NCBI GenBank assembly: GCA_022705905.1 | Contig: JAKJDO010000004.1 | Span: forward strand, 374 to 64,373 | DNA: 64,000 nt | Reading direction: 5' to 3' | Source of the DNA: Patescibacteria group bacterium | Lineage (GTDB): Bacteria > Patescibacteriota > Patescibacteriia > Patescibacteriales > UBA12075 | Part shown: in pieces, positions 9,028-62,493 of the stretch | Position numbering within the stretch: position 1 is the first letter of the stretch | Layout of the letters: each line of letters begins with the position of its first letter | Program-made: the position numbers and the translations under genes | The notes under the pieces: generated by a model | The model's database searches: none | Seen by the model: the letters and a program-made list of their open reading frames with translations, nothing else | Told to the model about the DNA's origin: nothing

Positions 9028-9396
9028 TCAGAAATGAGACAGCTCGAGAATCGCGCCGATGACGCTCGGCAGGTGGCTTTCGCCTAGGCATTGGTAGTTG
9101 CAGCCGGCCTGCACCAGCTCGTCAAGACGGCTGTGCCTTGCCACCGCAATGACAGGGATGGTCTGATTGACATCCCTGATTCGCCGTACTGTTTCTACGG
9201 CGCCGGGGTGGTCGCCGCACCCATCAATAACGATGATGGGGAAGCAATCGCTGGTCTTGGTAGCAGCGAGTTCGACTGCCGCTTTGACTGTTGTTTTGGA
9301 TACCGACAGATTACCGTCGGGCCAAACAACGCCCTGCTCGCAGATTGCACAGGTATCCGTCGTGCCGAGCACAAGAACTTTGATGCCCTTACTCAT
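9028..9396 (-). CDS. Orphan receiver-like (CheY/flavodoxin-fold-like) protein 1, degenerate
   Basis: SD AAGGAGGAG 6 nt upstream. Pattern IKVLVLG...PIIVIDGCGDHPGAVETVRRIR...IPVIAVARHSRLDELVQAGCNYQCLGE. Strongly GC-elevated. Confidence 0.5.
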   Translation of the reverse strand: MSKGIKVLVLGTTDTCAICEQGVVWPDGNLSVSKTTVKAAVELAATKTSDCFPIIVIDGCGDHPGAVETVRRIRDVNQTIPVIAVARHSRLDELVQAGCNYQCLGESHLPSVIGAILELSHF

Positions 9397-9452
9397 GTCC
9401 TACTCCTCCTTAGTTTTTTTTCCTAGCCAGTTAAGAACTAGAAAATTATATT

Positions 9453-9481
9453 AGTATATCAAAAATTGACAATAACGTCAA
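9453..9481 (-). promoter_or_regulatory. Promoter TTGACG-17-TATACT for receiver-like gene 1
   Basis: Minus strand reads TTGACGttattgtcaatttttgaTATACT, directly after the upstream terminator. Confidence 0.5.
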
Positions 9482-9487
9482 TAAGGC

Positions 9488-9528
9488 GAAAAATAGGAGG
9501 CCAGCTGATTATAAAAACTCAGCTGGCC
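9488..9528 (-). terminator. Terminator after receiver-like gene 2
   Basis: GGCCAGCTGA-10 nt-TCAGCTGGCC perfect hairpin followed by TCCTATTTTT on the minus strand. Confidence 0.75.
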
Positions 9529-9549
9529 GAAGTGATTGATCGTTGATTT

Positions 9550-9936
9550 TTAGGTTGGGGCCAGGATATTGCGGAAGAGGGTGCCGTCTTCGATTTTGCT
9601 TTTGATTACTTCATAGTCGTAACCGAGGACGCCAAGTTGTTGAAAAAGCTTATCGCGTTTTTCGATGGTGCCGCCGCCAGCGACAATGAGTCCCTGAAAA
9701 TTACGGGCCTCGAGATCATCCAAAATGGCTCGGTAGTCAAAACGCTGATCGCCCGGTGTTTGCTGGGTGTCAACATCCAGAATGATTACCGCAAACTCCC
9801 AGCAGTTAAGATAGTCAGAAGCCTGTTCATTGGAAAGAGCGGAAAAGATCAGCGCTCTTTTGAAAAGATCACCGCTCTTTATTCCAGAAGCAACGTTAAC
9901 TCGGTCGCAAACACACAGAATTTTTGGTCTCTTCAT
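9550..9936 (-). CDS. Orphan receiver-like protein 2, degenerate
   Basis: SD GGAGGAAG upstream. Pattern KILCVCD...FAVIILDVD...GLIVAGGG...GYDYEVIK. 18 nt downstream of gene 3, so probably co-transcribed. Confidence 0.45.
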   Translation of the reverse strand: MKRPKILCVCDRVNVASGIKSGDLFKRALIFSALSNEQASDYLNCWEFAVIILDVDTQQTPGDQRFDYRAILDDLEARNFQGLIVAGGGTIEKRDKLFQQLGVLGYDYEVIKSKIEDGTLFRNILAPT

Positions 9937-9954
9937 GAGCTATCTTCCTCCATG

Positions 9955-10318
9955 TCAGTTTTTTTCAGTAAAGATAATGATGACATCTGCCAGTTCGTCC
10001 CAGGGACAGGCGCAAGCGCAACAGTAGGCTTGTTCGTATTTAGCCCTGAGAGCTCGGTTGTCGGTGGCCGCAAGCAGGATCCTACCGCCATTACTTTTGG
10101 TAAGCTGCGCCCAATTATGCGTCTGAATGAGATTGTGCTTTTCGCAGGCGTCAACATCAAAAACCACCAAGCTGATGTCGGGAAAATTGGAAATGGTTTT
10201 TTTTTGCCCTTGCTTCATTGATGGTCCAAACGACTTCCACGCGGCCGGCTAAAGCAGTTTTTAGGTCAGCTACTCTCTGTCGGTCGTTACTGATAAAAAG
10301 TGCTCCCGGTATCCCCAT
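9955..10318 (-). pseudogene. Orphan receiver-like protein 3, interrupted by a 1-nt frameshift in an A9 tract
   Basis: ATG at 10318 (SD AAGGAGGAAgtt) opens a 53-codon frame, and ORF 9955..10218 continues in the +1 frame. The junction is the run 10197-10205. The span is 364 nt (3n+1). With A8 it would read one 120-aa protein. Confidence 0.6.
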
Positions 10319-10369
10319 AACTTCCTCCTTGTCATAATATACCCCAGTTTTTCAGCTGAGATTGTATAA

Positions 10370-10398
10370 AATGTAGCAAAAATTAAAATCAGTGTCAA
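10370..10398 (-). promoter_or_regulatory. Candidate promoter TTGACA-17-TACATT for receiver-like genes 3 and 2
   Basis: Minus strand reads TTGACActgattttaatttttgcTACATT, about 50 nt upstream of the 10318 start. Confidence 0.4.
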
Positions 10399-20451: not shown

Positions 20452-20540
20452 CGGTTTTAGATTTGCGCTTTAAGATTCATTACCTTTAAAATTATTTGTC
20501 TTTAATCCGAAATTATAAATTTAAAACTATAAATTAATAT

Positions 20541-21386
20541 ATGGGAGTTAAAAAAGTAAAACCGATTACACCGGGTTTGCGTCAAGCCAGTTTTGATGAT
20601 TTTTTAGATATTACAAAAAACAAACCAGAAAAAAATTTGGTTGTTATTAAAAAAAGAACCGGCGGCAGAAACAGCCAGGGTAAAATTACCGTTAGACATA
20701 GAGGTGGCGGTGCCAAAAGATACGTTCGTTTAGTTGATTTTAATCGAGATAAATTTGACATTCCAGCTAAGGTAGCCGCGATTGAGTACGATCCTAATCG
20801 TGGAGCTCGTATTGCTTTGTTAGTTTATGCTGATGGCGAGAAGCGTTATATCGTCGCTCCGATTGGTTTAAAAATCGGCGAGATAATTTTAAGCTCGCGA
20901 AAACAAATTGAAATTAAACGCGGCAACTCTATGCCAATTCAATATATTCCAGCTGGTATTGAAGTTTATAACGTTGAATTAGATCCGGGCAAAGGCGGCA
21001 GGATAGCCAGAGGAGCCGGCAACGCCGTCTATGTCATGGGCGTTGAAGGCAAGTTTGCCCAGGTAAAGATGCCATCAGGCGAAATTAGATTAGTAAAAAA
21101 AGAATGTTTGTGCACTGTTGGCCAAGCTAGCAATCCAGATAAACGTTTAATAAAATTAGGTAACGCCGGTCGCACTAGATATTTAGGTTTTCGTCCGACT
21201 GTCCGTGGCACAGCCATGAATCCAGTTGATCATCCTCATGGTGGTGGTGAAGGCAATCAGCCAATCGGTTTAAAACATCCTAAAACTCCTTGGGGCAAAC
21301 CAGCCTTGGGCGTCAAGACCAGAAATGCCGATAAACCTTCCAGCCGATTAATAATTCAGAGGCGAAAAAACAAAAACAGAAAATAA
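20541..21386 (+). CDS. rplB: 50S ribosomal protein L2
   Basis: GRNSQGKITVRHRGGG...MNPVDHPHGGGEG signature. Confidence 0.97.
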   Translation: MGVKKVKPITPGLRQASFDDFLDITKNKPEKNLVVIKKRTGGRNSQGKITVRHRGGGAKRYVRLVDFNRDKFDIPAKVAAIEYDPNRGARIALLVYADGEKRYIVAPIGLKIGEIILSSRKQIEIKRGNSMPIQYIPAGIEVYNVELDPGKGGRIARGAGNAVYVMGVEGKFAQVKMPSGEIRLVKKECLCTVGQASNPDKRLIKLGNAGRTRYLGFRPTVRGTAMNPVDHPHGGGEGNQPIGLKHPKTPWGKPALGVKTRNADKPSSRLIIQRRKNKNRK

Positions 21387-21408
21387 ATTATTAGATAGTT
21401 GAAATATT

Positions 21409-21702
21409 ATGTCAAGAAGTTTAAAAAAAGGACCATACATTAACGAAAGATTGCTCAAAAAAATTATGAGCTTAAAACCAAGCGATAAAACCAACATAAA
21501 AACTTGGGATCGTTCTTGCACAATAACTCCGGAAATGGTAGGCTTTACTATCGGCGTTCACAATGGCAAGCAACATGTGCCCGTCTATATTGTCGAAAAT
21601 ATGGTAGGTCATAAGCTAGGTGAGTTTGCTCCAACCAGAAAATTTATCAGCCATGGTGGCAGAGCGGCCAAGGAGCAGGCCAAAGTGGCTAAAAAAGTGT
21701 AA
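21409..21702 (+). CDS. rpsS: 30S ribosomal protein S19
   Basis: [11 protein letters not shown]...[13 protein letters not shown]...[11 protein letters not shown]. Confidence 0.96.
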
Positions 21703-21741
21703 TTAAATCAAATTTGTCAGATATAAAATAAATAGTTTTAT

Positions 21742-22323
21742 ATGGAAGTTAAAGCAAAAGCAAAACATATCAGAATATCACCGCGCAAAGTACGTTTGGT
21801 AGCTAGCTTGATTCGTGGCATGGAAGTTGTTAGGGCTTCGGATCAATTAAAATTTATCAATAAACAAGCCGCTGCTCCGATTGCTAAACTATTGAATTCA
21901 GTGGTCGCTAACGCCACCAATAATTTTGAACTAGAAAAAAGTAATTTGTATATTAAAGAAATTAGAGTTGACGAAGGTGCGACTTTAAAGCGCTGGATGC
22001 CGAAGGCTCGTGGCCGCGCCACGCCTATCAGAAAAAGAACCAGTCACATCTCCGTTGTATTAGACGAATTGGTGGCCAGCGGTAAAGTTAAAGCCAAGAA
22101 GCAAAAACTAGAAGCACCCATTAAATTGGACAGTAAGCTCAAAGAAGATGAAGGCGTTAAAATAAAGGAAGAAAAGGGAAAAACTTTAACTAATGAAGAA
22201 AAGGAAGAAAAGGGAAAAACAATTCACGATCCTAGAATGGAAGGGAAAAGTCACCATGCTAAAATAGAAGGCAAAAGTAGCGCCGGTATTGTTAGAAAAA
22301 TGTTCCAGAGAAAATCGGGATAG
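21742..22323 (+). CDS. rplV: 50S ribosomal protein L22 with ~80-aa Lys/Glu-rich C-terminal tail
   Basis: L22 core (RISPRKVRLVASLIRG...RWMPKARGRATPIRKRTSHI). The tail contains a perfect 20-nt direct repeat at 22165-22184 and 22201-22220. Confidence 0.93.
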   Translation: MEVKAKAKHIRISPRKVRLVASLIRGMEVVRASDQLKFINKQAAAPIAKLLNSVVANATNNFELEKSNLYIKEIRVDEGATLKRWMPKARGRATPIRKRTSHISVVLDELVASGKVKAKKQKLEAPIKLDSKLKEDEGVKIKEEKGKTLTNEEKEEKGKTIHDPRMEGKSHHAKIEGKSSAGIVRKMFQRKSG

Positions 22324-22460
22324 ATGGTAGGTTCTAGGTATTAGTTTTTAGATTTTAGAAAGAGATCAAAAATTAAAACCTGATAACCTTTTATTATAGT
22401 AATGTAGGCAGTAAATAAATTAAGATAATAAAATAAACAAAATAGAATTAAGCAATTGAC

Positions 22461-23144
22461 ATGGGAAAGAAGATAAATCCAAAAATATTCCGCATAACCA
22501 CAACCAAGAATTGGCCTTCAAAATGGTTCGCTCTTGGCAAGGATTATTATAAAAATGCCGAACAAGATGTTAAGGTCAGAAAATTTTTATTACGCGAATT
22601 ACGTGAAGCTGGTGTTGATCGAATAGAAATTGAACGTGGTGCCGACAAAATTAATGTTAGCATCCACACCGCTAAGCCGGGTATTATTATCGGTAGAGGC
22701 GGCGCTGGCGCCGAAGAGTTGAAGAAAAAAATTCATAGTAAATTTTTAAAGAATTATAAATCAGGCGCTATTAGTTTAAATATTTTTGAAGTTGATCGTC
22801 CAAGCCTGAGCGCTCAAATTATTGTTCAAGCAATGATTTTAGATTTGGAAAAAAGAATGCCTTTTCGCCGTGTAATGAAGCAGGCGATAAATCGCGTAGA
22901 AAGAGCAGGCGCCTTAGGCGTTAAAGTGATTGTTAGCGGTCGTTTAAATGGAGCTGAAATTGCTCGCGAAGAAATGTTGAGCTCAGGCAAAGTTCCATTG
23001 CAGACTCTGCGGGCCGACATTGATTATGCCCGCGGTTTCGCTCGCACCACTTACGGCACTATTGGCGTTAAGGTTTGGATTTATCGTGGTGAAAAATTCT
23101 CCAAGGGAGAAGAAAAAAGAGGAGAAATTTTAGGTAAAAAATAA
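22461..23144 (+). CDS. rpsC: 30S ribosomal protein S3
   Basis: MGKKINPKIFR...KH domain...GRLNGAEIAR signature. Confidence 0.96.
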   Translation: MGKKINPKIFRITTTKNWPSKWFALGKDYYKNAEQDVKVRKFLLRELREAGVDRIEIERGADKINVSIHTAKPGIIIGRGGAGAEELKKKIHSKFLKNYKSGAISLNIFEVDRPSLSAQIIVQAMILDLEKRMPFRRVMKQAINRVERAGALGVKVIVSGRLNGAEIAREEMLSSGKVPLQTLRADIDYARGFARTTYGTIGVKVWIYRGEKFSKGEEKRGEILGKK

Positions 23145-23172
23145 AATTATAAAAATAATAGAAAATTGAGAT

Positions 23173-23589
23173 ATGTTAATGCCAAAAAAAACCAAACACC
23201 GAAAATCACATAAGGGCCGACGTGGCGGCAAGGCTAGTCGCATGGTTAAGCTTGGTTTCGGCAACTTTGGTTTAAAGAGCGTGGAAGCGCGCTGGGTAAC
23301 TTCAAGACAGATTGAAGCCGCTAGACGCGTTATGACTAGGTATATAAAGCGTGGCGGTAAAGTTTGGATTAGAATTTTTCCAGACAAGCCGGTAACGCAA
23401 AAGGGCGGCGAGATTCCTATGGGCAAAGGCAAGGGCGCAGTTGATCACTACGTCGCTGTAGTTAAGCCGGGCATGATTTTGTTTGAAATGGATGGCGTTA
23501 GCGAAATTGTAGCTAAAGAAGCCATGATATTGGCTTCTCATAAGTTGCCGGTTAAATGTAAATTTGTTAGCAAGATAAGCAATGATTAA
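23173..23589 (+). CDS. rplP: 50S ribosomal protein L16
   Basis: [16 protein letters not shown]...[29 protein letters not shown]. Confidence 0.96.
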
Positions 23590-23603
23590 TAGCATAAAAT
23601 AAT

Positions 23604-23837
23604 ATGGATTTTAAAGAGATAAAAAAGAAAAGTCAGACAGAACTGCACAAAATGTTAGCCGAGTCTCGGGATAAATTAAGAGAGTTGAAATTTAAAGACG
23701 CTAATAAACAGTTGAAAGATGTGCGCTCTATTCGTAAATTAAGAGCGATAATTGCTCAAACCTTGACTGTTATAAATCAACAACGGAGTGAAGGTAGCAA
23801 AAAAAACAACGACAACAGCCAAGCTGTTAATAAATAA
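23604..23837 (+). CDS. rpmC: 50S ribosomal protein L29
   Basis: ELHKMLAESRDKLRELKFK pattern; position between rplP and rpsQ. Confidence 0.88.
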   Translation: MDFKEIKKKSQTELHKMLAESRDKLRELKFKDANKQLKDVRSIRKLRAIIAQTLTVINQQRSEGSKKNNDNSQAVNK

Positions 23838-23849
23838 AAATTTTGTAAT

Positions 23850-24113
23850 ATGTCAGAAAAAAAAGAAAAAGCTAAAGGTCTGATGCGCCGAAAGTTGGAT
23901 GGCATTGTAGTCAGCAACAAGATGACAAAGACAATTGTTGTCAGAGTTGACAGTGTGTCAGTACATCCCAAGTATAAAAAAAGATACACAGTCAGTAAAA
24001 AATACAAAGTTCATGATGAAAAAGGTCAGTTTCAGGAAGGTGATAAAGTTAGTTTTGTTGAATGCCGGCCGATATCAAAAGATAAACGTTGGCGAGTAAT
24101 TTATAGTAAATAA
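23850..24113 (+). CDS. rpsQ: 30S ribosomal protein S17
   Basis: [16 protein letters not shown]...HPKYKKR...KYKVHDE...RPISKDKRW. Confidence 0.95.
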
Positions 24114-40063: not shown

Positions 40064-41413
40064 ATGTATTTAACTTCTTTTGAAGCAACAAGCCAAATTG
40101 GCAAAGAAATAACTCTAAAAGGATGGGTTAACGCACGACGTGATATGGGTAAGGTTGTCTTTTTTGATTTGCGTGATCGAGCTGGTATCATCCAAGTTGT
40201 GGGCGTACCTTCAGAGTTGGATGAAGGTTCGCAAGTTAACATGAAAGAAGCTCGACCGGAATGGGTTTTAGAAATTAAAGGAGTTGTGCAAGAGCGCGGT
40301 GCTAAACAAAGAAATCCCAACATGCCAACAGGTGATATTGAAGTATTGGCAAAAGAGATTAAAGTTCTAGCTAAAGCCGAACCGTTGCCATTAGATTTAG
40401 AAGATGAAAAAATGGGGCTCGATGTTTATCTTGATCATTTACCAATTACTTTACGTACCGCTAAAGCCCGGGCTTTATTTAAGACACAGGCGGAAATTGC
40501 TGAGGCCTTCCGTGCTTTTATGCGCTCCAAAGGTTTTACAGAAATTCAGGCACCAAAAATTGTCGGCGAATCAACCGAAGGCGGTGCTAATGTTTTTACG
40601 ATTGATTATTTTGGCACCAAAGCTTTTTTAGGTCAGAGTCCACAGTTTTACAAACAAATTATGGTTGGAGTTTTTGAGCGTGTTTTTTCTGTCGGCAATG
40701 TTTATCGTGCCGAAGAACATTCAACCAGCCGTCATATCAATGAATATACCAGTCTGGATATGGAAATGGGTATGATTAGAAACCATACGGATATTATGGA
40801 AATAGAAACAGAATTATTAAAATATATTGTCGAGCATTTAAAGAAGACTGTGCCTGACGAATTAAAAGTTTTAAATTTTGTCGAGCCATTGCTTCCAGAA
40901 AAAATTCCGGCTCTGAAACTTAGAGAGGTTCAAGAAATCATTAAAAAAGAAACTGGCGCTGATCACACCAATGAGCCAGATTTAGAACCAAGCGAAGAGC
41001 GTTGGATTTGCGAATATGTAAAAGAGAAATTCGATTCCGATTTTATTTTCGTAACCCATTATCCGACTTCAAAAAGACCAATGTATACTTATCCAGACGA
41101 AACCGATCCAGAATTTACTAAAAGTTTTGACTTATTATTCCGCGGCATTGAAATTACAACTGGCGGCCAACGTATTAATGATTACGAACAGTTAGTCGGC
41201 AATATTAAAAAGTGGGGAATGAATCCGGACGATTTTAAGTTCTATCTAGAAGCATTTAAATATGGTATGCCGCCAGAAGGAGGGCTGGGTATGGGCCTAG
41301 AAAGATTGACTGCCAAACTATTTAATATAGACAATGTTAAAGAGGCAACACTTTTCCCGCGCGACTTAAATCGTATTGATTTACAAATTTCCTTGCCTGA
41401 CGATAAAAAATAA
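40064..41413 (+). CDS. aspS: Aspartate--tRNA ligase, short (archaeal/eukaryal-like, no GAD insertion) form
   Basis: OB-fold N-terminus ([24 protein letters not shown]), class II motifs ([21 protein letters not shown]); 449 aa. Confidence 0.9.
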
Positions 41414-41417
41414 TAAT

Positions 41418-42809
41418 ATGAAAAAAATAACAGTAAAACAAATCTTTAAAGAAAAAGAAAAATATATCGATCAAGAAGTTGTTATTAATGGTTGGGTGCG
41501 GACATTGCGCTCATCCAAGAATTTTGGTTTTATAGAACTGAACGACGGTACATTTTTCAAAAGCATACAGGTTGTCTTTGCAGATAAACTAAAGAACTTT
41601 GATGATATAGCTAAAACAACTATCGGTTCGTCTTTAGTAGTTGAAGGTAAACTCATAAAATCTCCGGCTGAGGGTCAAGAATTTGAAATTCAAGCTAGTA
41701 AAATTGAAGTGGTTGGTTTAGCTGATGCAGATTATCCCTTGCAAAAGAAAAAACATTCTTTTGAATTTTTGCGTACCATTGCTCATTTACGCAGTCGTAG
41801 TAATACTTTTTCTGCTGTCTTTCGCGTGTCGTCGAAATTAGAATATGCTATCCACAAGTTTTTTCAGGAGCGTGACTTTGTCTACATCCATTCACCGATT
41901 ATAACAGCCAGCGATTGTGAAGGTGCTGGTGAGATGTTTCAGATTACGACTTTAGATCTAAATAAATTACCCAAAAATGATAAAGGCGAAGTAGATTTAA
42001 AAGAAGATTTTTTCGGTAAACGAGCTGGTCTAACAGTTAGCGGTCAATTAAATGCAGAGACGATGGCTATGGCTTTTCAAAAAGTTTATACATTTGGGCC
42101 GACTTTCCGCGCTGAAAATTCAAATACCACCAGGCATGTGGCTGAATTTTGGATGTTGGAGCCAGAAATGGCTTTTGCCGATTTGGAAGATGATATGCAT
42201 CTGGCCGAAGAAATGATAAAATATTTAGTAGATTATATCCTGACCGAATGTCCGGAAGAGATGGAGTTTTTTAATAAATTTATCGAGCCGACATTATTGG
42301 AGCGTTTACATAATTTGCGCACAGCTGAATTTAAAAAGATGACTTACACTGAAGCGATTAATATTTTAGAAAAAGCTGATGTAAAATTTGAAGTGCCGGT
42401 TAAGTGGGGAATTGATTTACAGACTGAACACGAACGTTATTTGACTGATAAAGTAGTGAAAGGACCGGTGTTTGTGACGGATTATCCAAAAGAATTTAAA
42501 GCTTTTTATATGCGCCTGAACGATGACAAAAAAACAGTAGCTGCAGTTGATTTACTTGTCCCGGGCGTTGGTGAAATTATTGGTGGTAGTCAAAGAGAAG
42601 AAAGACTAGATGTTCTAAAAGCTAGAATGAAGGAATGCGGAATTAAAGAGGAGGATTTAGAGTGGTATTTAGACACACGTCGTTTTGGTGGAGCGCCACA
42701 CGCTGGTTTCGGTCTCGGTTTTGAACGAGCATTAATGTATTTAACCGGTATGGCGAATATCCGCGACGTTATTCCTTTTCCGCGGACACCGAAGAATGTT
42801 GATTTCTAA
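41418..42809 (+). CDS. asnS: Asparagine--tRNA ligase
   Basis: [52 protein letters not shown] motifs. ATG at 41418 preferred over the overlapping 41376 start. Confidence 0.9.
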
Positions 42810-42860
42810 CTTGTTTTTAAGGAAATTAAGATAAAATTAATTAATAATTAAATAAAAAAT

Positions 42861-43799
42861 ATGGAAAAAAATAGTTCGGCAAAGTTTTCGTTTTACTACC
42901 TATTGTCGTTGGTGGCATTGCTGTTTACCTCAATTTCTGTCGGCATTGTCATTTTTCAAACGATCAATAAATACGTCACTGATGTACTAAATCAATACAG
43001 CGGCACTTTTTCTCAAGACGCTTTAAAGTTCGCGATCTCGGCTTTAATTATTGCTGCCCCAATCTTTTTCGTTACTACTCGATTAATTTATAAAAGTTTA
43101 GTTAACGGCAACCTAGACAAAGATTCAGCTGTACGTCGCTGGCTAACCTATTTTGTTTTACTAGTGTCAGCCGTAGTAATGATTGTTTGGTTGATTACTA
43201 CTATTAATAGTTACCTGAACGGAGAATTAACCCTTAAAGCTATTTTAAAAACTATTACTGTTCTCGCTATTGCTGCTAGTATTTTTAGTTATTATTTGTA
43301 TGATATAAAAAGAGAGGTTGTGACAGACAAAAAAGATAAGATTGTGTTATCTTATTTCTATGCTACTTTAGTCGTCGTGATTGGCGTCTTTATTTGGTCT
43401 CTGTTTATTGTTGAATCGCCAACTGCCACGAGAAATAGGATAATGGATAATAATGTTCTCAATAATTTTGACACCATCAACAATGCCATAAATGATTATT
43501 ATTATAAATATAAAAAATTACCCGACGATTTAGAAATGTTAAAAGATACTCAGGCATATTTGACCAATAGCAACCTCCAAGATCCGGCAACAAAAGTTCG
43601 ATTTGATTATAAAATAAAGAGTGGTAATGAATACGAGCTTTGCGCGACTTTTAAAGCTTCAAATAAAAATCAGACAGATATGTCTTATGTTTATTTGAAA
43701 GACCGTTGGCCGCATGACGCCGGTTATCAATGTTTAAGCCAGAAAGTTACAGATATAAAAGGTGCAGTGGAAAATAAAGCAGTTAACCCTATTCAATAA
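42861..43799 (+). CDS. Multi-TM membrane protein with pseudopilin-like C-terminal globule (DUF5671-like)
   Basis: 5-6 TMs followed by ...INDYYYKYKKLPDDL...YELCATF..., typical of CPR membrane ORFans. Confidence 0.5.
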   Translation: MEKNSSAKFSFYYLLSLVALLFTSISVGIVIFQTINKYVTDVLNQYSGTFSQDALKFAISALIIAAPIFFVTTRLIYKSLVNGNLDKDSAVRRWLTYFVLLVSAVVMIVWLITTINSYLNGELTLKAILKTITVLAIAASIFSYYLYDIKREVVTDKKDKIVLSYFYATLVVVIGVFIWSLFIVESPTATRNRIMDNNVLNNFDTINNAINDYYYKYKKLPDDLEMLKDTQAYLTNSNLQDPATKVRFDYKIKSGNEYELCATFKASNKNQTDMSYVYLKDRWPHDAGYQCLSQKVTDIKGAVENKAVNPIQ

Positions 43800-43933
43800 A
43801 AATAGATTCTTGACTAAAGTTAGCATTAAGTGTTAAGCTAGTTTTTATAGTTTTTGCTCTTTGTTTTTTTAGTGGGTAATAACGGCCATCTTTATTTGGC
43901 CGAAAATATTATAGCAGAAGGAGGGTTCACGGA

Positions 43934-61540: not shown

Positions 61541-61887
61541 AAAAGATTATAATGTTTATATATTTTTTCACATTTATAAAAAAAAATCAAGAGCATTATC
61601 ACGCAACACAAAACACATAACAAATAACATTTTTTACATTATTTTTTTTATGTGTTTTTGCACCCTATGTTAAGTTGTATTATTTGCTTTTTTTGAGTAA
61701 TTATGATATTCTCGGTATTAACGGCTTAGAGAAAAAGACGCAAATAAAATTATTCGTTTTCCCAATATTTTAGCTAAAATTAATCAATTTTCTTCTACAA
61801 TGAATTAATATAAAGAGATCGGGCAAAAATAGGTTTAATCCTGTGTTTTTTTGTTCTCTTTTTAGTTTATTTTTAGCGACAAAAAAG

Positions 61888-61920: not shown

Positions 61921-62493
61921 ATGAAGATAAGTGCATTTAGCGATAAAATTTTATATTTACGCCTGCAAGACAAGGACAAAGAAGCTTTTATTAAGGCTTA
62001 TGATTTGTATTTAGACAGCATTTATCGCTTCATTTTCTTCAAAGTAGGCAACAGGGAAGAGGCCGAAGACTTAACTTCATCGGTGTTTTTAAAAGCCTGG
62101 GATTATATCCAAACTAATAAAATAAAAGAATTTAAGACTTTAAAATCGCTTTTATATAAAATAGCTAGAAACGCAGTCATTGATCACTACCGCAAGCAAA
62201 GTAAAAGGCAGGAAATCAGCCTGGACCAAGTCGAAGAAGCGGTTGATATAATTGATGAAAAATTTGATTTGATCGGCGAGCTAGAATTAGCTGCCGAGTG
62301 GCGTGAGCTAGAAAAAAAGCTGTGTGAATTAAAAGACGAATATCGGGAAATAATTTTACTTAAATATGTTGACGAGCTGTCAATTGCCGAGATAGCTAAA
62401 GTTCTTAACAAAAGCCAGGGCAATGTCAGAGTTTTGATTTTTCGGGCCGTCAGCGCTTTAAAAAAAATCGCGGAAGTCGAAGAAAAAAAATGA
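61921..62493 (+). CDS. ECF-type RNA polymerase sigma-70 family factor
   Basis: Region 2 (IYRFIFFKVGNREEAEDLTSSVFLKAW) and region 4 HTH (LSIAEIAKVLNKSQGNVRVLIFRA). Confidence 0.88.
   Translation: MKISAFSDKILYLRLQDKDKEAFIKAYDLYLDSIYRFIFFKVGNREEAEDLTSSVFLKAWDYIQTNKIKEFKTLKSLLYKIARNAVIDHYRKQSKRQEISLDQVEEAVDIIDEKFDLIGELELAAEWRELEKKLCELKDEYREIILLKYVDELSIAEIAKVLNKSQGNVRVLIFRAVSALKKIAEVEEKK

Follow-up and report, generated by a model that had tools for sequence, protein, structure and literature searches.

The window analyzed here, a stretch of 64,000 nucleotides from a Patescibacteria group bacterium (GCA_022705905.1, contig JAKJDO010000004.1), carries on its minus strand a cluster of three small genes, the first of which (gene 1) is split at a homopolymeric run of nine A's. 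The features of the cluster are as follows.

10370..10398, minus strand, promoter-like site of the gene cluster, TTGACA-17-TACATT with a TG extension (a consensus match only)
10321..10330, minus strand, strong Shine-Dalgarno sequence AAGGAGGAAG, read directly, 2 nt before the ATG at 10318
9955..10318, minus strand, gene 1, frameshifted in the window; 364 nt (3n+1); its A8 version is the 120-amino-acid protein P0003
10157..10318, minus strand, upstream open reading frame of the A9 allele, 53 amino acids; stop codon TGA at 10159..10157
9955..10218, minus strand, downstream open reading frame, 87 amino acids, +1 frame; contains the native C-terminal 80 residues
10197..10205, minus strand, A9 homopolymer (T9 on the plus strand), polymorphic between A8 and A9 among near-identical assemblies
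10159..10163, minus strand, T5 run on the coding strand, in the Val-Phe codons immediately before the conserved Asp54
9959..9965, minus strand, A7 run directly before the stop codon; A6 in one assembly (L013), taken as noise
9550..9936, minus strand, gene 2, 128 amino acids, beginning 18 nt past the gene 1 stop codon, with its own Shine-Dalgarno sequence GGAGGAAG
9476..9481, minus strand, -35-like hexamer TTGACG upstream of gene 3, containing the single-nucleotide polymorphism (SNP) at 9479 (C/T on the plus strand)
9028..9396, minus strand, gene 3, 122 amino acids, containing SNP 9246, a haplotype marker

On the coding strand, the run lies in the context GGGC-AAAAAAAAA-CC (10205..10197), where it supplies the last base of the codon for Ala38, the codons for Lys39 and Lys40, and the first two bases of the codon that follows. 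The initial annotation had placed an A9 run at this site and had proposed that the frame opened by the ATG at 10318 shifts by +1 into the downstream open reading frame over a span of 3n+1 nucleotides. Direct reading of the minus strand confirmed the run and its context, and the shift and the span were confirmed as well. When the length of the tract was changed in silico, A8 gave a single protein of 120 amino acids and A11 gave one of 121, and A7 or A10 led into the third frame, which is open up to the end of the gene.

How the A9 allele alters the product of gene 1 follows from its two reading frames. The upstream frame encodes 40 native residues, MGIPGALFISNDRQRVADLKTALAGRVEVVWTINEARAKK, and then 13 that are out of frame, and the peptide at the junction is AKKTISNFPDISLVVFDVDACEK in the full-length product versus AKKNHFQFSR in the truncated one. 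Translation from the ATG at 10318 would stop after 53 codons, at 10157. The native C-terminal 80 residues, which hold all of the conserved acidic and Cys motifs, probably are not made, because the ATG at 10218 lacks a good Shine-Dalgarno sequence and is preceded at most by a GGA 7 to 9 nt upstream. Moreover, about 200 nt before gene 2 would no longer be translated in A9 genomes.

Homologues of gene 1 are few. Searched exhaustively with HMMER, 1.84 billion cluster representatives yielded only two genuine homologues: P0006, with 122 amino acids and 42% identity over its full length, and P0007, with 265 amino acids, the N-terminal half of which is 39% identical to the gene 1 protein. The alignment with P0006 and P0007 runs from end to end, invariant residues flank the tract on both sides, and P0006 has Ala-Lys-Lys at the position of the tract. 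The family shares a conserved C-terminal motif, CxCxCxCPWD. As the homologues are uninterrupted and invariant residues surround the tract, we conclude that the in-frame form of about 120 amino acids is ancestral and selected and that A9 is derived. Both homologues, on contigs of JGI 3300075153, adjoin a gene for an M50 peptidase, and the contig of P0007 also carries S12, as does the window. Four giant repeat proteins (P0005, P0009, P0010, and P0011) were matched by HMMER spuriously, through many short repeated stretches.

The gene 1 product had been called receiver-like, and we find that the resemblance lies in the predicted fold. Searches of Pfam, NCBIfam, and PDB-chain sequences gave nothing significant for gene 1 (all NCBIfam matches were subthreshold), and PADLOC gave zero hits. 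PF00072, the CheY-like family, did not match gene 1, and gene 3 scored 12 bits against a cutoff of 30.2 bits. An AlphaFold2 model built on the three-sequence alignment was of low confidence (pLDDT 59.6, pTM 0.55); it had the order β-α-β-α-β-α-β-α-β and placed Lys39-Lys40, encoded by the tract, in helix 2. When the model was compared to the PDB with Foldseek, the top matches were mostly receiver domains, all of them weak, with E values no better than 1.7e-3 and TM scores of 0.35 to 0.55. By eye, on the three-sequence alignment and the low-confidence model, Asn11, Asp54, Asp56, and Thr85 are invariant, position 12 holds Asp in all but one of the three sequences, which has Asn, and the strand 5 position is Cys104-Pro105 instead of Lys-Pro. 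Thus, like members of PF00072, the gene 1 product has a predicted (βα)5 order, acidic residues at the end of strand 3 (Asp54 and Asp56), and a Thr at the end of strand 4; unlike them, it has no family match, and the strand 5 Lys is apparently replaced by the Cys-rich CxCxCxCPWD. "Receiver-like" thus plausibly describes the fold of the gene 1 product but does not place it in the family; the fold resemblance is weak, and the sequence matches are only subthreshold.

Genes 2 and 3 had been proposed as two paralogues of gene 1, similar to it in size. Paralogy of the three genes was rejected at the sequence level, with MAFFT identities of 18 to 25% and an hhalign probability below 1%, and neither neighbor has significant similarity to gene 1. 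Genes 1 and 2 are fused in the relative P0007, as gene 2 corresponds to the C-terminal half of that protein (BLASTP E = 5e-14). In gene 3, SNP 9246 changes the protein: on the plus strand, A gives Cys51, the state of the A9 lineage, and G gives Arg51, the state of the A8 lineage. SNP 9479, in the -35-like hexamer, is the marker that reveals A9 on two distinct backgrounds (see below).

Long A/T runs are rare in this genome. The window has a GC content of 0.378 and contains 215 A/T runs of 6 nt, 111 of 7, 39 of 8, and 2 of 9, with 9 as the maximum; besides the gene 1 tract, the other run of 9 is at 61578-61586, in an AT-rich stretch that belongs to no open reading frame of 150 amino acids or more. 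Under an order-5 Markov model fitted to the window, about 21 runs of at least 9 would be expected, against the 2 observed, and all 200 simulations gave more than 2. A/T runs thus appear to be capped at 8 nt, and A8, with its 39 runs, is the commonest maximum length. So sharp a ceiling in a reduced, AT-rich genome is compatible with counterselection of runs that reach the length of the RNA:DNA hybrid. The gene 1 tract is the sole coding run above the ceiling, and it is the same tract that breaks a gene.

The locus has been assembled many times. A search with the repaired 120-amino-acid protein returned a single cluster at 90% identity with four members. P0003, found on 12 contigs, is identical to the A8 prediction; P0002 is the 87-amino-acid open reading frame and bears the NCBI name "Parcubacteria group bacterium ADurb.Bin316," for which a literature search found nothing. 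P0001 (121 amino acids) is the A8 form with one extra in-frame Phe, because the T5 run is T8 in one JGI contig (L001), and P0004 (127 amino acids) is the A8 form with a change from A7 to A6 at its 3' end. We compared more than 60 loci from NCBI, JGI, ENA, and Logan, comprising the encoding contigs and their neighbors. Over stretches of up to 20 kb, all shared 99.7 to 100% identity with the window; more than 20 public assemblies matched it at 99.9 to 100%, and GCA_035388145.1 (L009) and the window were identical across 20,218 nt. The comparison therefore lies inside one near-clonal population that has been sampled repeatedly. Protein-pattern and DNA-pattern scans of genome contigs gave no match, and a DNA-pattern scan of metagenome contigs gave one locus only (L014), which is A9.

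Comparison of the tract across related assemblies, as the initial annotation had suggested, showed either A8 or A9, both common, among near-identical loci. A9 was found in about 13 assemblies: GCA_035388145.1, GCA_002069505.1, GCA_029573295.1, SRR6476074, SRR5007219, five ENA assemblies (ERZ795056, ERZ795059, ERZ795063, ERZ27257483, and ERZ27257442), and three JGI assemblies (3300010351, 3300025882, and 3300026153). A8 was found in at least 9: GCA_020047475.1, ERR14964768, ERZ22666056, SRR11235434, SRR29782965, and four from JGI (3300027914, 3300026155, 3300026158, and 3300026159). The protein that A8 was predicted to encode therefore exists, exactly as proposed, as P0003 in at least nine other assemblies. 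Neither A7 nor A10 was seen at the tract among the compared assemblies. One A8 assembly, SRR27560946 (L013), was left out as evidence because, relative to the other A8 assemblies, it contains four additional 1-nt deletions within 2.2 kb, three of them in or beside A/T runs; such deletions are typical of noisy reads.

The state of the tract follows the sequence around it. A9 was present in 8 of 8 assemblies with 9246A and in 1 of 9 with 9246G, the other eight being A8, such that the tract and a SNP 951 bp away were concordant in 16 of 17 assemblies (Fisher p = 4e-4, a value that may be inflated as assemblies may share reads). The assemblies are not necessarily independent, as Logan, ENA, and third-party sets may reuse reads, and the independent samples are fewer than the assemblies. 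Moreover, the A9 lineage has later SNPs of its own, each in at least two assemblies: 9558A (JGI 3300010351, ERZ795063, and others) and 9562T (ERZ795056 and ERZ27257483). As the A9 lineage has acquired SNPs of its own, A9 has been inherited stably over time.

As a control, we compared 365 A/T runs of at least 6 nt, each covered by at least two loci (median 5); all 39 runs of 8 were among them. Changes in length were confined to two runs, the gene 1 tract and an intergenic T7/T8 run at 61846-61852. Homopolymer lengths in the assemblies can thus be trusted, and the variability belongs to this tract in particular. The SNP linkage and the stability of the control runs together reject assembly error, which the initial annotation had listed among its explanations, and we conclude that A9 is a real, inherited, tract-specific variant. 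The annotation also held that reads uniformly showing A8 would reduce A9 to a simple assembly error, and that outcome is unlikely.

How A9 arose and what it does are best accounted for by a stable null or hypomorphic allele confined to one lineage, a reading that we consider probable. Slipped-strand mispairing during DNA replication would have expanded A8 to A9 in the tract that encodes Lys39-Lys40 of what is predicted to be a small, lineage-restricted α/β protein. A9 is most likely fixed in one widespread sublineage of a near-clonal, ADurb.Bin316-like Parcubacteria population, a sublineage that includes the window, and the sister sublineage retains A8 and the intact 120-amino-acid gene. The tract stands at the 8-nt ceiling, and one step above it would be the most mutable state. 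Standing one step over the ceiling would explain why the tract is the sole variable coding homopolymer and why A9 recurs on an A8-type haplotype. Rare slippage by RNA polymerase or the ribosome might restore the frame, which would make A9 a weak hypomorph at most. Loss of function, an origin in replication slippage, and slow switching are all three inferred.

Decay had been one of the explanations first offered, and a lineage-specific null allele is the form of it that fits best, but further lesions are absent: the A9 and A8 genes are identical outside the tract and differ by one frameshift. The absence of secondary decay is uninformative here because divergence is too low, 0.02 to 0.05% overall and about 0.03% between the lineages. 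The abundance and wide geography of the A9 lineage fit dispensability of gene 1 and fit leaky or regulated expression equally well. In biological terms the finding is modest, one slipped-strand frameshift allele of a hypothetical gene. Nonetheless, it would be wrong to "correct" the frameshift as if the assembly were at fault, as A9 marks a real sublineage of a Parcubacteria that recurs worldwide in digesters and wastewater. The two alleles also form a natural knockout-versus-intact pair for an uncharacterized three-gene module that is conserved beside an M50 peptidase gene in relatives.

Patescibacteria (CPR) are ultrasmall and episymbiotic. In other bacteria, the contingency genes of Neisseria, Haemophilus, Campylobacter, and Helicobacter carry homopolymeric tracts and are phase variable. 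Gene 1 might likewise be a contingency locus in which frequent switching between A8 and A9 turns the gene reversibly on and off, with possible polar effects on genes 2 and 3 and with each assembly reporting the majority state of its sample. Like contingency genes, gene 1 has a mononucleotide run inside its reading frame, at which a slipped-strand change in length toggles between an intact and a truncated product, and both lengths occur naturally. A8 and A9 are both common, the tract is the lone variable coding homopolymer among 365 runs, and gene 1 contains a second variable run, from T5 to T8 in L001. Finally, A9 occurs on two SNP backgrounds, and 9479T contigs differ in tract length within one JGI series (3300026153 and 3300026158).

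The two backgrounds deserve a closer description. The 9246G/9479T subhaplotype is A8 in SRR29782965 and A9 in JGI 3300026153, the latter on a contig of 10.8 kb in which other indels are absent; the 9479T contig of JGI 3300026158 is A8 and ends short of 9246. All four combinations of the tract and site 9479 are therefore present, a failure of the four-gamete test that implies one of three things: a second event from A8 to A9, a recombination event in the intervening 718 bp, or a single error in a consensus. On sequence comparison, the one A8-type haplotype that carries A9 suggests that the expansion recurred or that recombination took place. The tract may thus be called a mutational hot spot, but only in a weak sense.

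Fast switching, however, would wipe out linkage to SNPs, and the tract follows SNP 9246 in 16 of 17 assemblies within a lineage that has SNPs of its own. Moreover, only two lengths were seen, without A7 or A10, and A8 and A9 are short next to a classical contingency tract. Unlike the contingency genes, gene 1 has a tract state that is stably linked to flanking SNPs, a short poly(A) at the run-length ceiling instead of an expanded repeat, and a product that looks like a cytoplasmic α/β protein and not a surface or restriction-modification protein. Phase variation of gene 1 is therefore unlikely in our judgment. Of the slippage-prone switch put forward in the initial annotation, the hot spot survives, as both lengths are common and A9 occurs on an A8-type haplotype, and rapid switching is opposed by the stable linkage. 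The accompanying proposal, that digester populations with A8/A9 mixtures toggle a small, CheY-fold-like, Cys-rich protein together with its fused or cotranscribed partners, is equally doubtful. Were it true, Cys51/Arg51 and SNP 9479 in the -35-like hexamer would be markers of coadapted states of the three-gene module, and, going by a literature search, it would be the first documented homopolymer phase variation in Patescibacteria.

In contrast to a stable null or weakly functional allele, A9 genomes could still yield the 120-amino-acid protein through recoding, either by slippage of RNA polymerase from A9 to A8 or A11 or by +1 slippage of tRNA-Lys on AAA-AAA-A. The length of the run, nine A's, equals that of the RNA:DNA hybrid, slippage becomes exponentially more frequent as runs lengthen (PMC5574713), the A9 lineage is an ecological success, and +1 re-pairing of tRNA-Lys would, from the sequence, produce exactly the A8 protein. 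Known programmed sites of transcriptional slippage include Thermus thermophilus dnaX, Shigella spa13, and Citrobacter rodentium tssM (PMC5009743; PMC4256274). Like these, gene 1 has a run of A's on the coding strand where RNA polymerase can realign; unlike these, in which the slippery arrangement is conserved and functional, the gene 1 frameshift is a derived allele, and its homologues are single open reading frames. Thus, gene 1 has a run of at least 9 in its A9 form but no conserved out-of-frame state. The existence of an in-frame A8 allele and of uninterrupted homologues means that the shifted state is not a conserved design, and programmed recoding is disfavored accordingly.

The direction of slippage also counts against recoding. 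Slippage at A/T runs is mostly a +1 insertion, with in-run deletions much rarer (PMC5574713); a +1 insertion in A9 gives A10 and the wrong, though open, third frame, and the change needed is -1 or +2. RNA folding beside the run was unremarkable, with z-scores of +1.35 upstream, +0.37 downstream, and +1.0 across it. Slippage has been documented in T. thermophilus dnaX and in endosymbionts (PMC5009743), and partial rescue by transcriptional slippage has been reported for poly(A) frameshifts in Buchnera and Blochmannia (cited in PMC5009743; reexamined in PMC5574713), but in Buchnera restoration of the reading frame was not detected in any case (PMC5574713). Gene 1 resembles the Buchnera and Blochmannia genes in that a small, AT-rich genome has a frameshift exactly at a poly(A) of at least 9 in a gene that is otherwise intact; it differs from them in that the species also has an in-frame allele and in that the correction needed is -1 or +2, where +1 insertions dominate. 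We regard recoding as a decidedly poor candidate, less probable than phase variation.

The remaining explanation, that every genome truly has A8 and that A9 results from miscalling of the homopolymer, draws on the reputation of homopolymers as classic sites of error, on the noise displayed by the excluded Logan assembly, and on the low coverage of several A9 contigs (about 4x according to the contig names of ERZ795056), but it is close to refuted and very improbable, as A9 recurs across different assemblers and archives, is linked to a distant SNP, and stands in a 64-kb region whose other coding homopolymers all agree.

Two observations concern how the locus has been annotated. An apparent pair of strain backgrounds between the genes for EF-G and S7, with calls of 87 amino acids in one and of 77 and 78 in the other, proved to be a difference between gene callers, as the DNA was identical. 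Finally, the 1.06-Mb contig of GCA_040772285.1 (JAXGYM010000001.1) contains gene 2 and a gene 3 with Cys51 (9246A), and both P0003 and P0002 are absent from it; this gene content is compatible with an A9 allele that was annotated as a pseudogene.

A/T run length in the window is tightly bounded. A/T runs of 6, 7, 8, and 9 nucleotides number 215, 111, 39, and 2, respectively, and none is longer in the whole 64 kb. An order-5 Markov model predicts approximately 21 runs of at least 9 nucleotides, yet only those 2 are observed. Thus, A/T run length has a sharp ceiling, and its departure from the Markov expectation suggests strong selection against runs that match the length of the RNA:DNA hybrid.

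Gene 1 (9955..10318, minus strand), which is broken or intact depending on whether its coding-strand A run at 10197..10205 is nine or eight long, also varies at a second tract. One contig (L001; JGI 3300026155) has T8 in place of the coding-strand T5 at 10159-10163, directly before the codon for conserved Asp54, and the extra in-frame Phe gives a protein of 121 amino acids (P0001). The same contig carries two private SNPs. A homologue of 265 amino acids from a relative (P0007; JGI 3300075153) contains gene-1-like and gene-2-like halves in one polypeptide, the C-terminal half matching gene 2 of the window (9550..9936) by BLASTP with an E value of 5e-14. The fusion implies joint action of genes 1 and 2.

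The cluster of genes 1 to 3 (9028-10318) has a GC content of 0.45 to 0.56 versus 0.378 for the window, and despite that difference its neighborhood is kept in relatives. Population SNPs are few, and several of them (9246, 9479, 9558, 9562, and 9870) lie within or between the three genes, although enrichment is not established because sampling depth was uneven. Three features of the cluster are as follows.

9246: SNP in gene 3, Cys51/Arg51
9479: SNP within the -35-like hexamer that precedes gene 3
9637..10221, plus strand: antisense ORF of 194 amino acids spanning genes 1 and 2

Some gene callers, when given A9 assemblies, place an antisense ORF of 89 amino acids where the broken gene 1 sits. 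The antisense ORF over genes 1 and 2 is probably an artifact of locally GC-rich sequence.

Elsewhere, two segments diverge among near-identical public loci, one of them as follows.

42545-43890: divergent segment covering the DUF5671 gene (42861..43799) together with the 3' end of ORF 41376..42809

Here, L025 and L030 are just 76 to 91% identical to the window, with flanks at 99.9%, and the segment appears to be an allele of a membrane protein gene that is either hypervariable or the product of recombination. At 20465-23982, 15 SNPs, all in the L2-S19-L22-S3 ribosomal protein genes and found only in L015 (JGI 3300027914), resemble the trace of a short recombination event within DNA that is otherwise clonal. 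Finally, positions 1-9078 of L026, a 1.06-Mb contig (GCA_040772285.1), carry DruA, DUF87/ResIII-like, and phage integrase genes upstream of a 23S-rRNA-IVP-like gene; the same place in the window holds housekeeping genes (44-50 kb). L026 1-9078 is a putative strain-specific defense or mobile island.

Besides the A8/A9 tract, a second homopolymer length polymorphism was observed.

61846-61852: intergenic T7/T8 run, approximately 70 nucleotides upstream of ORF 61921..62493, which encodes an ECF-type sigma factor

The run is T7 in the window and T8 in L025 (JGI 3300027914), L026 (GCA_040772285.1), and L029 (SRR27558879). Given its position, the change could alter promoter spacing for the sigma factor ORF.
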